Shown here one piece after another: positions 39,697-64,000 of a DNA stretch of 64,000 bases. The notes under the pieces were generated by a model that had not been told where the DNA came from, did not search any database, and saw nothing but the letters and a program-made list of their open reading frames with translations. Within the stretch, counting starts at the first letter, position 1, and each line of letters opens with the position of its first letter. This stretch comes from a virus, in IMG/VR virus record IMGVR_UViG_3300033978_000457, positions 36,126-100,125 of that record. One strand, written 5' to 3'. The position numbers and the translations under genes were made by a program.

Positions 39697-39715
39697 TTGT
39701 TTCCTTTAAATTTAT

Positions 39716-40077
39716 AATACCAGCCACACCGTAAAGTATGGCTGGTACTACGTCCAGAGTTTCTGTTTCTAGGCCTCTGTAACTCCCAATAAGGGTTACG
39801 CCGCTAAGCGCATGTCCTCAAATGCTACGTTGTCGTTTGCATTTAGTTGTTTTTGAACTTCTAACGGAGTTCATTCGAGTTGTCCACTATTTTACAACGC
39901 CAGTCGATCCTATGTCGCCCCCATCAAAAACATACCAACCCCTATCCGAGGCCCCACTGATAGTTGGGCTTAGCTCTAAGCTCTATCAGAAGCCGTCGAG
40001 TTACCGAGGTATGCTTTTGGTGGAGGCGCCGGGTACTGCCCCCGGGTGTTGCCGCCTTATCGTCGTTTCATACAACT
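39716..40077 (-). ncRNA. ssrA: circularly permuted two-piece tmRNA; tag (A)ANDNVAFEDMRLAA
   Basis: Acceptor piece ends CCCGGGGGCAGTACCCGGCGCCTCCACCA (40018) upstream of coding-piece start GGGGGCGACATAGGATCGAC (39922); G3-U70; tag ORF 39796-39840. Confidence 0.95.
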
Positions 40078-40585
40078 ATAATTTAGGTTTATTGATAATA
40101 TCAATAGAAGCTTGAGTTGTGTCGATGATCACGTCTTTTTGACTAATGATCTCTTCCATGATCTTAGACACTTCATTACTAGTAAGTCCTAGTGAATCTT
40201 GTGCCTCAAAAAGTTTTGCGGAAAAAGCAGAAGCATGAAGAGAATACTGAACTTTCATATCCCGAAGAATTTTAGCAAGTTCAACAACTGCCTTAGGGTA
40301 CTTGTTTTCCACTGCATTAACAATAGTTTCAACAGTAATCACAGGCTTCTTAACTTCTTTTTCTAATGCTTCCTGCATCATAACCTTTCCAACATAACCC
40401 GGCGTTCTATAATCTACAGGCTCAACGCTGCCCGTAATTCCTATTGCGCCCTTTGCCTCATCAGTATAGGACGGTTCAGGAGTAATGTCAAGTACCATAT
40501 TCTGATATTGAGACAGCACTCCATTTCGATCCCTAACTGGAAGGAGCTTTCTAAAAAAATCAGTCGTTTTATTCTTGAAGTTCAT
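40076..40585 (-). CDS. hypothetical protein
   Basis: ORF with SD. Confidence 0.55.
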   Translation of the reverse strand: MNFKNKTTDFFRKLLPVRDRNGVLSQYQNMVLDITPEPSYTDEAKGAIGITGSVEPVDYRTPGYVGKVMMQEALEKEVKKPVITVETIVNAVENKYPKAVVELAKILRDMKVQYSLHASAFSAKLFEAQDSLGLTSNEVSKIMEEIISQKDVIIDTTQASIDIINKPKL

Positions 40586-58145: not shown

Positions 58146-58322
58146 TTATTTAATCCTAATCTTCTGCACCCTAGTTTTAGGAGCTGCATCTTCCATTCTA
58201 TGCTTATGGTCTAGCCAACCAGCAGCCCACTCTGTAGCTTTCCAACTACCTCTATCGTAGGGATTCCGCTCTATGGGTACACCTTCGATGCGGGCCATTC
58301 TTCCTAGGCTGTATTCTTCCAT
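58146..58322 (-). CDS. Rmf/CrpP-like small protein
   Basis: Manual ORF: LGRMARIEG...NPY......W..GW. Confidence 0.55.
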   Translation of the reverse strand: MEEYSLGRMARIEGVPIERNPYDRGSWKATEWAAGWLDHKHRMEDAAPKTRVQKIRIK

Positions 58323-58676: not shown

Positions 58677-58895
58677 TCAAGAACTTTTTTTTAAGCTGTC
58701 TTCGTATTTTTTTGCCTTTTTAAAAGCTTCTCTAAATGCACGTTTAGGATTGTTTGCTATAGCAACGCATAGCACTGGCTCAAAAGCTAGCACATCCTTT
58801 GCTAAAATGACTTCCCACAGGTCTAGTCCTTGAGATATAGTCATTCGCCAATCTTCACCAAGTTTACGAAGGTCTTGCTCTTGCTCTACTAGCAT
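58677..58895 (-). CDS. hypothetical protein
   Basis: ORF with SD. Confidence 0.5.
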   Translation of the reverse strand: MLVEQEQDLRKLGEDWRMTISQGLDLWEVILAKDVLAFEPVLCVAIANNPKRAFREAFKKAKKYEDSLKKSS

Positions 58896-59490: not shown

Positions 59491-59757
59491 TTAAAACATT
59501 CCGTCGTGCAGCTCTGGGTCATAAGGTTCTGCCCAGCCTTCGATGTGCTCTGTATAGCTGTCCTGATGCTCTTCGTCTTCAAACTCTTCGGGAGCATCTT
59601 CTATCGGGTAGTACCCGTATGACTCTGCATGTTGCAATGCCATGTCCCACACAACGCTATTTAAGTCTTCTTGTGTGTGGTCGTCAGGCATTTCCAGCAT
59701 TTCAGCACACTCTGTGCCCACTGTGGCAGCAAACATATGCACTACGTACTTTTTCAT
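59491..59757 (-). CDS. acidic hypothetical protein
   Basis: A.QHAESYG...YDPELHD. Confidence 0.6.
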   Translation of the reverse strand: MKKYVVHMFAATVGTECAEMLEMPDDHTQEDLNSVVWDMALQHAESYGYYPIEDAPEEFEDEEHQDSYTEHIEGWAEPYDPELHDGMF

Positions 59758-59774
59758 TGCTTTTCTCTATAAAA

Positions 59775-59849
59775 TGGTACCCGGTGACGGGATTGAACCG
59801 CCGACAATTCCCGTGTAAAGGGAGCACTCTACCGCTGAGTTAACCGGGC
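59775..59849 (-). tRNA. tRNA-Val(UAC)
   Basis: TTTACAC loop, CCA. Confidence 0.95.
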
Positions 59850-59857
59850 TTAAAATT

Positions 59858-60021
59858 TGGTCAGTGTGCCATCTAGGCGTCTCCGGCCCACGCCGGTGTT
59901 CTAAGCTTTACCCTGTTGTCTCCTGTACACCTGTGCACGGATAACAAGCCTACGCTAGGGAATCTGCAACCTACTCTGCCCGTTAACAAGGCTACCCTCA
60001 GTTCCACTAAACTAACACTGA
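59858..60021 (-). ncRNA. ~164-nt CCA-terminated tRNA-like RNA
   Basis: TCAGTGT...ACACTGA-CCA terminal stem, D-arm-like start, large insert. Confidence 0.6.
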
Positions 60022-60024
60022 TTC

Positions 60025-60098
60025 TGGTACTTCTTAAAAGAATCGAACTTTTATCTAACGCCTATCAAGCGCCTGCTCTACCATTGAGCTAAAGAAGT
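60025..60098 (-). tRNA. tRNA-Ile(GAU)
   Basis: TTGATAG loop, CCA. Confidence 0.88.
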
Positions 60099-60101
60099 AT
60101 A

Positions 60102-60251
60102 TTATTGTACTGGCTTGATCATGTAGTAGTGTTCTTCGTCCTCGAACTCATCTGCATCGAGATAAGAATCTACTAGCTCGTCGGCCTCTTCACGAGTTAC
60201 ATTACGGTCGATAACTACGCCGTCCATGTATACGTTGTATTTCTTTTCCAT
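60102..60251 (-). CDS. small acidic hypothetical protein
   Basis: Manual ORF MEKKYNVYMDG...EEADELVDSYL...YYMIKPVQ. Confidence 0.55.
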   Translation of the reverse strand: MEKKYNVYMDGVVIDRNVTREEADELVDSYLDADEFEDEEHYYMIKPVQ

Positions 60252-60265
60252 GTTTCACCTGTAAT

Positions 60266-60348
60266 TGGTATCCCCTGCCGGAATCGAACCGGCACTCCGA
60301 AGAAACAGATTTTAAGTCTGCCGCGTCTACCAGTTTCGCCAAGGGGAC
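60266..60348 (-). tRNA. tRNA-Leu(UAA)
   Basis: CTTAAAA loop, V-arm, CCA. Confidence 0.93.
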
Positions 60349-60687
60349 TTAATCTTCTTTACCGAAAGTATCTCTAGTTCTTAGCACTTCTACCATATAA
60401 AGCAAAGAGGGCTTCTGACTCTTGGTTAACCCTACCATCTGCTCATAATCTAGATATAGCATCTCACAAATCTCGTGAACAAGCTCTTCCTTAGAGACGG
60501 GTTTATCCGCATACTTTGGGGTATACGGCACCTTCTGATAAATCTTAAGACGAGAGAGCTTTCCGATAATTGATCGTGTTGACACTTCAAATTTATCGGC
60601 TAGAAAATCCACTGTCTCCTTAGTAGGAGCGAAAGTGTATTCCTCTATCATGAGAGCGATCTGCTCGTCTGTGTATTTTTTGCTCAC
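60349..60687 (-). CDS. T5 A2/D5-like HTH DNA-binding protein
   Basis: YT.EQ, LA.KF..STRSIIGKLSR..IY. Confidence 0.7.
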   Translation of the reverse strand: MSKKYTDEQIALMIEEYTFAPTKETVDFLADKFEVSTRSIIGKLSRLKIYQKVPYTPKYADKPVSKEELVHEICEMLYLDYEQMVGLTKSQKPSLLYMVEVLRTRDTFGKED

Positions 60688-60923
60688 TTAAATATCCCAA
60701 AAATTTCTTTTGTTTTGGTAACGGTCCAGATGTTATCTAACAGCTTTTCGTCATTACCACCGGCAGCTACATATTCAGCGCCTAATTTGATATATCTATC
60801 TTCCCAGTTTTCTACTAACTGCCTCACTTGGGCAGACAATTCGTTGATACGAGTTGCTTCATCTTCTAGCAATCGTAAGTGTTTCTCTAGCCCTTTATGT
60901 AGGGGGAATGCTTCTACAGTCAT
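60684..60923 (-). CDS. hypothetical protein
   Basis: ORF with SD GGAG. Confidence 0.5.
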   Translation of the reverse strand: MTVEAFPLHKGLEKHLRLLEDEATRINELSAQVRQLVENWEDRYIKLGAEYVAAGGNDEKLLDNIWTVTKTKEIFGIFK

Positions 60924-61274
60924 GAAATCTCCACATTCCTACGCGGCCCCGTCTCGCCCGTAGAATGACATTCCGTTCCGGCATGGGAGCCCGGCCAGCA
61001 CTACAAGGTCCGCAGACACAAGAGTGAACATAGCCGCCGAATGTCTTACCTAAACTTTATGAAGTGTATATAAGGTATTTAACTGCTATAACCACCATTC
61101 TCACTTCGAAGTCTATAAATGGGTTGAGCAATCTAAGCATCCCTGTGCACCAGGGTTGTTTCTCTTATATACACGTCGTAAAGTTTACAGAAACATACAG
61201 AGACAAACCAGCATTCTCATCCCGTGAGTCGATCGTACGGGCTGTGCAAGGTTTTATCACTCTGTATGCATCAA

Positions 61275-62190
61275 TAAACTTCTCTGACCAAGCTCCGACC
61301 TTCGCTTGGGCAAGTCTCTAGCAATCTAGAGCCCTATAGAGTTTTGCAAAACTCTTCCACATCATTAAGGTAGGGCCACGACTTCCTACATCACGATGGT
61401 CATTTTTAACGAAAGGATGCTTGCATCCAAAACGCCGGGGCGGTACCGGTCTAACCGCCTATGCACATAATTTGAGTACTACTTATGTGACTGAAGTAGA
61501 CGGGGGCTCTCACCCAACTGGTCCGCACTATCACGGATATCTACTTAGTGGAACGTGATGTTAATGACCTCTTACCACTATGCGTCAAGTATTAGGACTT
61601 TAAAGTGCGTGCAATACCAATGCACTGAGGAGTAGGAAAATTCCTCGTCTGATTTTGGTACAGACCCTTCCAAGAACACCGTAGCGCCTACCGCGTCTAC
61701 CGGAATAGCCCAGGCTTTCAACCTGCACTTGTCTTGCATTCCTCGTGCGCAAAACCAAACACTATCCAATGTACCCCTTTGGCAGGAGCGTATCTTAAAC
61801 TAGAGTACGCACAGTAGTGAGTTACAAGTTTCTCACTAATAGCTGTCTCGCCGCTATTGCCCCTCGTCTATATGTCGGTGGGGTGTACCGGAACTGGAGA
61901 CGAGTAATGCCTTTCGGCACTTATTTACGTCTAGTGCGTTCGATTAATCGCGTCCAATCGCTCCCGTCATGGATCAGGTGGGTTTCAGAGGTCTCTATTG
62001 ACTTACCCATATCTCAACTCTGAGGCAAGGGGTCCCTTACGAGGCTCCCGAAGACTCTGGGCTTTTAGATTTCGCCCTACCTGTGCAACTTGAGGGTGTG
62101 CACAACCGCAGTAAGTGATTAGGTTTTAGCTCACTAGGGCTTTGTTTGTAATACGAGGTCAAGCCCTGTCTACATACAAACAACCATAAA
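61275..62190 (-). ncRNA. candidate giant ornate structured ncRNA (~0.9 kb)
   Basis: No credible ORF; many hairpins with GNRA loops and pseudoknot complementarities; downstream of promoter 62310-62349. Confidence 0.7.
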
Positions 62191-62191
62191 T

Positions 62192-62263
62192 CGCGCGGTG
62201 AAGGGGTTTGATACCTTCAGCTTCCACCATATCCGGTTCGCGTCTACCTTCCGCCAACCGCGC
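62192..62263 (-). ncRNA. tRNA-like element lacking a normal anticodon arm and CCA
   Basis: GCGCGGT/ACCGCGC acceptor, Leu-type D arm, GAAGG/CCTTC T arm. Confidence 0.55.
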
Positions 62264-62309
62264 TAGATCAAATGGACAGGCTTTGCCCCCTCTTCGATCT
62301 TGAATACAC

Positions 62310-62437
62310 AGTATACACGATATGGGCCCTGCAGTCAAGAACTATTTTTCAGGCCTCGGGGAGAACTTCTTCTGGTTGTTCTCCCATCGTTTAAACAGTA
62401 TAGCTGAGCTTCAGTCCCCAGTCAAGAAGTATTTTTT
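62310..62437 (-). promoter_or_regulatory. tandem sigma70-type promoters driving the ncRNA/tRNA operon
   Basis: Two TTGACT-N17-TATACT (62310-62338 and 62397-62425). Confidence 0.85.
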
Positions 62438-62442
62438 AACTC

Positions 62443-62673
62443 TCAGACCGCGCTGCCCATTGTTATGCCGACAGCGTAGATAAGTGTAATAACTCCCTGC
62501 ACAAAGAACAGGCTCCACTTCTTCCAAATCCACCCTAGATAAAGCCACCCGAGGTTGCCTACTAGGCTAATCCAAAGGTTGAAAGGGTGAATATTAAAAC
62601 TCGTTAGAGCTACCCCGACAATCAGGGTAGCTGTAATGCCCCACTCAAGGGTAAGATCTTTGTTCAGTGTCAT
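62443..62673 (-). CDS. small 3-TM membrane protein (PnuC-like half)
   Basis: Hydrophobic, P.NLW..LVGN.GW. Confidence 0.6.
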   Translation of the reverse strand: MTLNKDLTLEWGITATLIVGVALTSFNIHPFNLWISLVGNLGWLYLGWIWKKWSLFFVQGVITLIYAVGITMGSAV

Positions 62674-62674
62674 T

Positions 62675-62881
62675 TCACATCTCGTTAAGTTCTTTGTTGT
62701 GCGCCTTACGCAGAGCAACAGCATATCTCCAGCCATCACCAAATTGTTCTTTGTCAGCCGGAACCAGATCGTCTAGGCACTCGTAGAAAGCATCTGCGTT
62801 GTCTCTACACTCAATAGCGTAGATGAAACCTTCGCGCCATGCAATTGGCTGGCCGAAGAAAATTCGATCAAGTTCTTTCAT
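62675..62881 (-). CDS. degenerate Rmf-like protein
   Basis: AWREGF.YA...F.DGW.YA. Confidence 0.45.
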   Translation of the reverse strand: MKELDRIFFGQPIAWREGFIYAIECRDNADAFYECLDDLVPADKEQFGDGWRYAVALRKAHNKELNEM

Positions 62882-63045
62882 ATTTTTTCTCCAAGGTACT
62901 TATCACGAGCCCAAGTCCAACCCTCGTACCAGCTTTCTAGATGGTACTCATTGTCGTAGGGGCAATCGTTTTCGGACACGCCGTGCTCGTAATCTTCGTA
63001 TCCCCGAACCCACTCAGGACTATGCTTTGTAAAATCTACTATCAT
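62878..63045 (-). CDS. Rmf/CrpP-like protein (55 aa)
   Basis: RGY....G.S...CPY.......W..GW..A. Confidence 0.65.
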   Translation of the reverse strand: MIVDFTKHSPEWVRGYEDYEHGVSENDCPYDNEYHLESWYEGWTWARDKYLGEKI

Positions 63046-63103
63046 AAATAACCCCCTCCAGAAAAAGACTAGTGCTTTTGAAATAGACCCTTGTAGAAAA
63101 AGA

Positions 63104-63301
63104 CTAGCCCTTTTCAAAATGGTCAGTAATTCTAGCGTCCATAACAATATCGTTGTATTCTTCGCCACGAGCATACGAGTACCCTTCGCACCACATCTCA
63201 GCATCCTTGCTGGCTGGCATATAAGGGCAATCTGCTATCGTTTTAGCACTGAAGAAAGCTTTCCAGCCTTCTTGAAATTTGTTAACAATAACTATAGTCA
63301 T
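63104..63301 (-). CDS. Rmf/CrpP-like protein
   Basis: EGWKAF......CPY.......W.EGY..A. Confidence 0.6.
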   Translation of the reverse strand: MTIVIVNKFQEGWKAFFSAKTIADCPYMPASKDAEMWCEGYSYARGEEYNDIVMDARITDHFEKG

Positions 63302-64000
63302 TTTAACACTCCATAAAGTTGTATAAAAACTAGTGCAAGTGATCTCGTCTATATCTTTAATCTCTCGCACAACGCTGGTCCTCATCCATCAGGAGCTAGG
63401 CCTGGGCTTTGTTGGATACAGTCACTTTTTCATTGAGAGCGCAAAAGATATGTAGATGTTGCACTAGTTATTATACCACTCCTCCGATCATTTATAGAGT
63501 ATAGGTTCAATCGAGGCGGAAGTCAAGACCTATTTTCGGGATTCTCCTGTGAGCCGCACCCCATTTTTGTCCTGTAATTGACAGCGTAAGCGCTTTCCTG
63601 ACCGGGGCCATTCTCGAAAAAACTGTCAAGAAATTTCTTTGAAATTGTCAAAATTGCGTCATTTCACGACGAACCCAGCAGCTTTTCTCTAACTATCTCA
63701 AACCATCGTCGTCGATCGCCAACTATCCCCCGGGCGACGAAACTAAAATAGATTAACCCAAACTATCCACGATTTGCCGGGATTAACGGGATTCATCGGC
63801 GGTAGCTGGGCGCAGTTGAGCGAGAACTATAATATAGTAGTTGACACACTGTTTCAGTTTTGCACTGTCAAGCCCGGCCGAGAAATAAAAAATAGATGTT
63901 GCACTCGCACTGGCGCAGAGCTTGCGCGCGCCGTTGCAATTGAGAATCAGTCGCAACTGGGCTAAAACCTTGAATTCATTGGTTTTTTTGCTGCAAAAAA

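Follow-up and report, generated by a model that had tools for sequence, protein, structure and literature searches.

What is encoded in the long stretch without genes that lies ahead of the tRNA array in an otherwise gene-dense phage genome? The DNA considered here (the window) is a stretch of 64,000 nucleotides, the right 64 kb of a linear virus record of 100,125 bp estimated to be ~96% complete. The family A DNA polymerase of this virus shares 46-49% identity with its counterparts in Proteus phage PM135 and Klebsiella phage Sugarland, both T5-like siphoviruses of ~100-110 kb, and the source is an uncultivated T5-like lake phage of ~100 kb. Nearly all genes of the window are on the minus strand. 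ARAGORN and Rfam at gathering thresholds detected 21-22 tRNA genes and a permuted alpha-type tmRNA, which were the sole types of Rfam match at these thresholds in the whole window. The tmRNA (39705-40135, minus strand; alpha_tmRNA, 108 bits) carries the tag ANDNVAFEDMRLAA. It hints at an alphaproteobacterial host, and a permuted tmRNA is also present in the related contig L049. As developed below, we think that the locus probably encodes a discrete, structured non-coding RNA of ~1.1 kb, running from ~62390 to ~61288 on the minus strand. Produced from tandem promoters at the head of the operon, modular and belonging to no catalogued family, this RNA would be released from the operon transcript and act on translation.

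A sequence-only reading of this DNA had noted about 0.9 kb without credible ORF at 61275-62190, downstream of two tandem strong promoters, and had proposed a giant, pseudoknot-rich non-coding RNA. The absence of credible genes was confirmed over an even larger region: the ORF-free stretch measures 1,519 nt (60924-62442) and is bounded by a 76-aa ORF and, on the 3′ side of the RNA, by a 79-aa ORF (ORF79, 60684-60923, minus strand). The few ORFs of 48-68 codons found within it are not credible. The 76-aa ORF (62443-62673, minus strand) encodes a small membrane protein matching DUF6552 (E 1.7e-9).

Just downstream of the latter, the motif TTGACT-17-TATACT indeed occurs twice on the minus strand, at 62425-62397 (P1, preceded by A-rich sequence) and at 62338-62310 (P2). 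P1 is conserved in the two closest relatives of the locus, L058 and L059 (see below), and would direct a start near 62390. P2, recognized by its consensus match and in the conservation alignment, would be located within the RNA made from P1. Between both promoters, hairpin H1 (GGGAGAAC/GUUCUCCC, 62359-62385, minus strand) is kept in L058 and L059, and two C-to-U changes in L059 lead to G-U pairs. P1 and P2 follow the promoter consensus of this phage, an A-rich stretch, GTTCTTGACT, 17 nt and TATACT, which is present in 13 copies in the window, all on the minus strand. A long form of this consensus, AAAAATAGTTCTTGACT-N17-TATACT, can be seen for example at 63526, 62425, 62338, 58680, 56910, 34833, 20220, 13519 and 7453, and its upstream half is common, word for word, to distant relatives (L061-L071 and others). 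Since the next consensus promoter after P2 is found only at 58680, the RNA heads a unit composed of the RNA itself, ORF79, a 112-aa ORF (ORF112) and the first eight tRNAs. The tandem copies of this sigma-70-type promoter would thus drive the RNA, the leader that follows it, the two ORFs and these eight tRNAs.

We searched for the stretch in public sequencing runs and compared the run contigs over 59600-63600. It was found in 24 runs of lake or freshwater origin belonging to 19 studies; metatranscriptomes account for eight runs, from three studies. Run X10 includes a 1,066-nt RNA contig identical to 61293-62358. A 997-nt contig of run X21 covers 61307-62084 and 62191-62372 with 30 substitutions and 3 small indels, and carries 33 other nt in place of 62085-62190; it therefore represents a fourth natural variant, besides the window, L058 and L059. 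Run X23 includes a 457-nt contig on 61678-62134. Such contigs carry no information on strand, ends or abundance, and DNA can occur in RNA libraries. The protein genes on either side (60349-60923, and from 62443 on) are uncovered in the three RNA runs and the DNA contigs of run X9 cover 28 of 30 bins; uncovered parts were not counted as evidence. From these libraries, the body of the RNA extends over 61293-62358, with the minus strand assigned on the basis of the promoters and of the excess of G-U over A-C described below.

In two studies, the ends of the contigs are at most 14 nt apart at both extremities, and the X9 DNA contigs continue past them. This coincidence is a weak hint that they correspond to real RNA ends. 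On the 5′ side, they extend to 62358 and 62372. Both positions are upstream of P2, in agreement with initiation at P1 near 62390. On the 3′ side, they stop at 61293 and 61307, both within a hairpin (61309-61288). The interval 61275-62190 delimited by the sequence-only reading is thus non-coding as proposed but falls short on its 5′ side: because the RNA contigs span 61293-62358 and 61307-62372, the element continues ~180 nt beyond 62190. The full transcript would be a single RNA of ~1.1 kb, and its homologs would measure ~1.3 kb in L058 and ~1.05 kb in L059.

Homologous loci were retrieved with an alignment (A1) of metagenome relatives of the neighboring 112-aa protein. Among the 90 loci obtained, the element was present only in the two closest, L058 and L059, and there promoters, RNA, leader, ORF79, ORF112 and tRNA-Leu(UAA) follow each other as in the window. 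The 112-aa protein itself (60349-60687, minus strand) is part of a family unassigned in Pfam, which occurs in 90 phage contigs of marine and freshwater origin (L045-L134) and has a conserved core, RSIIGKLS and PKYA(D/E)KP; in the closer relatives its gene directly precedes tRNA-Leu(UAA) and heads the tRNA array. It is also encoded by ~16 closer contigs of ENA and Logan (P0001-P0016). Together with X21, rebuilt from the contig comparison, the window, L058 and L059 provide four variants that form two close pairs. All copies share invariant blocks of 11-30 nt, which are conserved beyond the adjacent protein. Between these blocks, indels of 10-160 nt add or remove whole hairpins. We also looked for a protein conserved at the codon level: no ORF is shared by the four variants, and indels in multiples of three account for only 6 of 19 and 4 of 22 cases.

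More remote copies were sought by several approaches. The upstream regions of L061 and L062 did not align to the element, and nhmmer together with 11-mer word sharing over 132 loci revealed only the promoter motif in common with distant relatives. Two covariance models, R1 and R2, run on 91 sources recovered only the three known copies, and exact-motif scans gave 0 hits in IMG/VR and in GTDB genomes. In IMG/VR, queries with single small neighboring proteins retrieved no relatives, and the aligned-protein query only distant ones (32-45% identity). No match was obtained by blastn against 50,697 cultured phage records. The DNA-polymerase relatives L003-L008 are fragments which do not reach this locus. 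In the sources searched, no member of this RNA family was thus detected beyond the present phage lineage.

Folding of the single sequence is unexceptional, with an MFE z-score of about -1.7 on both strands. Strict GNRA tetraloop hairpins amount to 3, versus 0.8 +/- 0.9 in shuffled sequences (P ~0.05). We also examined the substitutions between variants. In an unbiased test, the structure was taken from one sequence and examined on the four-variant alignment, random partners of the same base serving as null. On the minus strand, 42% of the changed pairs were still paired (null 32 +/- 3%) and 31 double changes were counted (null mean 12, maximum 21). Values were lower on the plus strand, with 34% versus 28%. 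By domain, 9 pairs of the 3′ part were changed on both sides compared to 4.1 +/- 1.5 expected, a result attained in 1 of 500 shuffles, and slid controls gave 1-4; for the 5′ part, 3 pairs were observed compared to 1.0 (15 of 500 shuffles). A set of 24 helices (126 bp) picked by eye comprises 20 compensatory pairs distributed over 14 helices, and its G-U pairs outnumber A-C mismatches by 18 to 2, which designates the minus strand as the RNA.

As judged from the aligned variants, the helices persist through compensatory substitutions on the minus strand. The covariation that the sequence-only reading had asked for is thus found at the level of helices rather than of the long-range fold, and its power is low with four variants forming just two close pairs. 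Two long-range pairings suggested by RNAalifold, 62325-62317/61365-61357 and 62082-62074/61376-61368, were not accepted, the second being in conflict with a local hairpin that covaries in X21.

The architecture of the RNA appears modular, with invariant cores, a four-way junction, a three-way junction, a long 3′ hairpin, a terminal loop hairpin and variable expansion segments (all positions on the minus strand). Following the 5′ region, hairpin H2 (62265-62300) consists of outer, middle and apical stems with compensatory changes: in the outer stem A-U is replaced by G-C, and the pair 62289:62275 switches from G-C to C-G in X21 and L058. It is followed by a near-invariant, cloverleaf-shaped four-way junction (62193-62263). 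A 7-bp stem (GCGCGGU/ACCGCGC) closes this junction, and its three arms are a D-like one, one of 4 bp with a GAUA cap, and a T-like one of 5 bp in which G-C is replaced by A-U in L059. The variable module V1 (62085-62190), the segment exchanged in X21, is mostly deleted in L059. It borders an invariant 30-nt core block, CACAGGUAGGGCGAAAUCUAAAAGCCCAGA (62057-62086), which was identified in the variant alignment and holds a GGGC/GCCC hairpin. In hairpin H9 (CCUG/CGGG, 61963-61978), three of the four pairs covary, with three pair types, and none is broken.

Further downstream, hairpins H13 and H14 (61816-61858) show two compensatory changes and a one-sided one in the former, and one compensatory change in the latter. 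The three-way junction (61494-61546) includes UCCG/CGGA and a GAGA-capped GGGU/GCCC. These inner hairpins are present in all four variants, and the closing helix is GUAGA/UCUAC in the window and AGGAU/AUCCU in L059; folded as a single sequence, the junction has a z-score of -2.2. Hairpins H27 (GGCGG/CCGCC) and H28 (GGAUGC/GCAUCC), at 61415-61459, display one compensatory pair each as well as G-U transitions. In the long near-invariant hairpin (61357-61399), GUAGG/CCUAC is changed to GAGGG/CCCUC in X21, corresponding to two compensatory pairs. Finally, the hairpin at the 3′ end where the RNA contigs stop, CCAAGC-GAAGGUCGGA-GCUUGG (61288-61309), becomes GUGAGC/GCUCAC in L058 by three compensatory pairs, with conservation of the GAAGGUCGG loop.

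All the motifs quoted in the sequence-only reading are present, and they contribute unequally to this picture. Among its five hairpins presented as GNRA-capped, GCC-GAAA-GGC and GGGU-GAGA-GCCC are canonical and the second alone is universal; CAGGTT-GAAA-GCCTG, GAGTTTT-GCAA-AACTC and CCTC-GTAA-GGG do not form canonical tetraloops. The multiway junction stands, in the form of the three-way junction described above. The H-type pseudoknot at 62135-62185, which is part of V1, is kept in L058, where C-to-U changes retain G-U pairs, and is missing from L059 and X21, which points to a dispensable, peripheral expansion module. A second crossed pairing proposed between 61560 and 61390-61410 is not supported: one partner lies in an insertion specific to the window and the changes in X21 are uncompensated. 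We noticed by eye another, weak candidate of the H type at 61860-61890 (minus strand), where the CCCC loop of a CGGU/ACCG stem could pair with a downstream GGGG. Once a 1-nt alignment slip is corrected, L058 and L059 carry CCAC and GUGG at these positions, a change from C-G to A-U. With the named pseudoknots being lineage-specific or unsupported, and this single compensatory change for the remaining candidate, the term pseudoknot-rich is not established.

Could this RNA be nothing more than a portion of the transcript of the tRNA operon? It stands at the head of 18 arrayed tRNAs, and L058 and L059 share this gene order, with the 79-aa and 112-aa ORFs (60349-60923, minus strand), then tRNA-Leu(UAA) and the rest of the array. 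It could be a mere structured 5′ leader or spacer, cut off in the course of tRNA maturation and surviving as folded RNA without any function. No consensus promoter or clear terminator separates the RNA from the downstream ORFs and tRNAs, and distant relatives (L061-L063, L071), with the same tRNA order and a 112-aa protein 54-57% identical, have ~400-600 nt of unrelated non-coding DNA at the locus. Nevertheless, a passive leader requires neither 1.1 kb nor two promoters. Moreover, blocks of 20-30 nt are invariant next to a protein which is just 84% identical in L058 and L059, and helices are maintained by compensatory change; both features point to selection on the RNA itself. We consider a functionless leader unlikely.

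A distinct, conserved non-coding leader does exist between the RNA and ORF79 (60924-61287, minus strand). It is outside the RNA-library contigs and without Rfam match, and its fold is unexceptional (z = 0.26). The final ~120 nt before the start codon are near-invariant in L058 and L059. The leader may serve to control translation or as a site of processing.

Returning to a discrete, functional RNA, we found no intrinsic terminator after the 3′ hairpin, so its 3′ end would need processing. The stable folded part may thus be freed from the operon transcript and accumulate. Once freed, it might act on the translation machinery as a scaffold or sequestering RNA, as proposed for GOLLD and ROOL; this role is suggested by the context, because its neighbors are tRNAs, the tmRNA and three small Rmf-like proteins. 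The latter are encoded by ORFs flanking the RNA and the tRNA array (62878-63045, 63104-63301 and 58146-58322, all on the minus strand) and match Pfam RMF (ribosome modulation factor) with E 8e-6 to 8e-5 and 23-26 bits, just below the cut-off of 27.9 bits.

Another possibility is that the stretch consists of a string of small RNAs independent of each other, for example decayed tRNA genes or regulatory sRNAs. The cloverleaf-shaped domain and the weak cross-match of model R1 to tRNA-Met (E 0.3-0.7) are compatible with it, as is the independent gain and loss of modules among variants. An additional unannotated small RNA also appears to be expressed within the tRNA array: in the spacer 59858-60021 (minus strand), between tRNA-Ile(GAU) and tRNA-Val, a 162-nt RNA contig of X23 matches 59861-60001 exactly. 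Against such a string, the RNA contigs of two studies cross the whole 1 kb unbroken. P2 is the sole internal promoter, and there are no internal terminators at which the contigs halt. Furthermore, neither the tRNA model nor ARAGORN finds anything at the element, and 62193-62263 in particular is absent from the 21 matches of RF00005 and from the ARAGORN calls. Independent small RNAs are therefore quite improbable.

We then asked whether a single large RNA of this type belongs to a known family. The sequence-only reading had hesitated between a divergent GOLLD or ROOL and a new giant class, to be distinguished by a cmscan including OLE, HEARO, RNase P and introns. With Rfam 15, permissive filters and E <= 10, the region 60600-62700 gave 0 matches on both strands, and thus none to OLE, HEARO, raiA, RNase P, group I or II introns, 6S or rRNA; the model RF01998 (group II intron domain) also gave no hit. 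The GOLLD model RF02032, whose gathering score of 150 bits refers to the conserved 3′ domain, yielded nothing at E <= 10 over the entire 100-kb genome (10 candidates scored). The same was observed at E <= 10 with the ROOL model RF03087 (gathering score 99.1 bits), for which control genomes were likewise blank, so that the full Rfam scan is the stronger test. Our literature searches retrieved no description of this RNA.

A very divergent GOLLD or ROOL, beyond the reach of narrow Rfam models, would share the setting reported for these RNAs (PMC12286853), being phage-encoded, adjacent to a tRNA array, from lake water and longer than 800 nt. In view of the two models without match at E <= 10 and of the blank permissive scan, we regard this as highly improbable. 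The branch of a new class is the one that fits, given RNA contigs from three studies, a mosaic organization with covariation, the position at the operon head and the absence of Rfam match. As for a DNA-level element (origin or packaging site) or small peptide genes, the proximity of the stretch to the end of the linear record (~2-4 kb) and the few 48-68-codon ORFs might evoke them, but they can be almost completely discounted given the 18:2 bias indicating selection on one RNA strand, the presence of the stretch in RNA libraries, and ORFs that are not conserved with indels not in threes.

Taken together, these results suggest a structured RNA that apparently represents a new class among the large RNAs of phages, similar to GOLLD and ROOL in its setting. 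We tentatively put forward a broader possibility, for which the case is still somewhat short of balanced: freshwater T5-like phages may carry, by their tRNA islands, a third, unrelated class of giant RNAs of 1.1-1.3 kb, with a tRNA-shaped domain, interchangeable modules and tandem early-type promoters, possibly forming a higher-order assembly and acting on host ribosomes or the tRNA pool with the Rmf-like proteins, tRNAs and tmRNA. To our knowledge, no giant phage RNAs other than GOLLD and ROOL are well known; both occur near tRNA genes and form RNA-only cages with no known function. If a third unrelated class is real, this setting would repeatedly select very large folded RNAs, which would narrow their function to tRNA or ribosome biology. 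The present RNA would also lend itself to study, with clear promoters, natural variants that mark the dispensable modules, existing lake metatranscriptomes in which it can be measured, and candidate partners in the Rmf-like proteins, tRNAs and tmRNA.

How does this RNA compare to known systems? With tRNA (RF00005), the domain at 62193-62263 shares a 7-bp closing stem, three arms in a cloverleaf layout and a GG in the D-like loop. It differs by an anticodon-like arm of 4 bp with a 4-nt loop, a T-like loop of 9-10 nt without UUC and the absence of a CCA end. It is tRNA-like in outline only.

GOLLD is phage-encoded, was first found in lake metagenomes, exceeds 800 nt with many stems and with conserved and variable parts, and often adjoins or contains tRNAs (PMC12286853). 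Likewise, the RNA described here comes from a lake phage, is located at the head of a tRNA array, is mosaic over ~1.1 kb and includes a cloverleaf-shaped domain; its contigs of 1,066 and 997 nt are above 800 nt and its stems are many (24 curated helices). GOLLD assembles into a homo-oligomeric nanocage (14-mer); the likeness drawn here concerns setting, size and mosaic organization. In addition, conserved blocks are spread along this RNA, in contrast to GOLLD in which they are concentrated in the 3′ half.

ROOL is a large, abundant RNA of phages and prophages, encoded near tRNA islands and of unknown function (PMC12286853). The RNA of this lake phage resembles it as a large phage RNA near tRNA islands. 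It is about twice as long as ROOL, and it comes from freshwater phages whereas ROOL is mainly found in rumen and Firmicutes settings.
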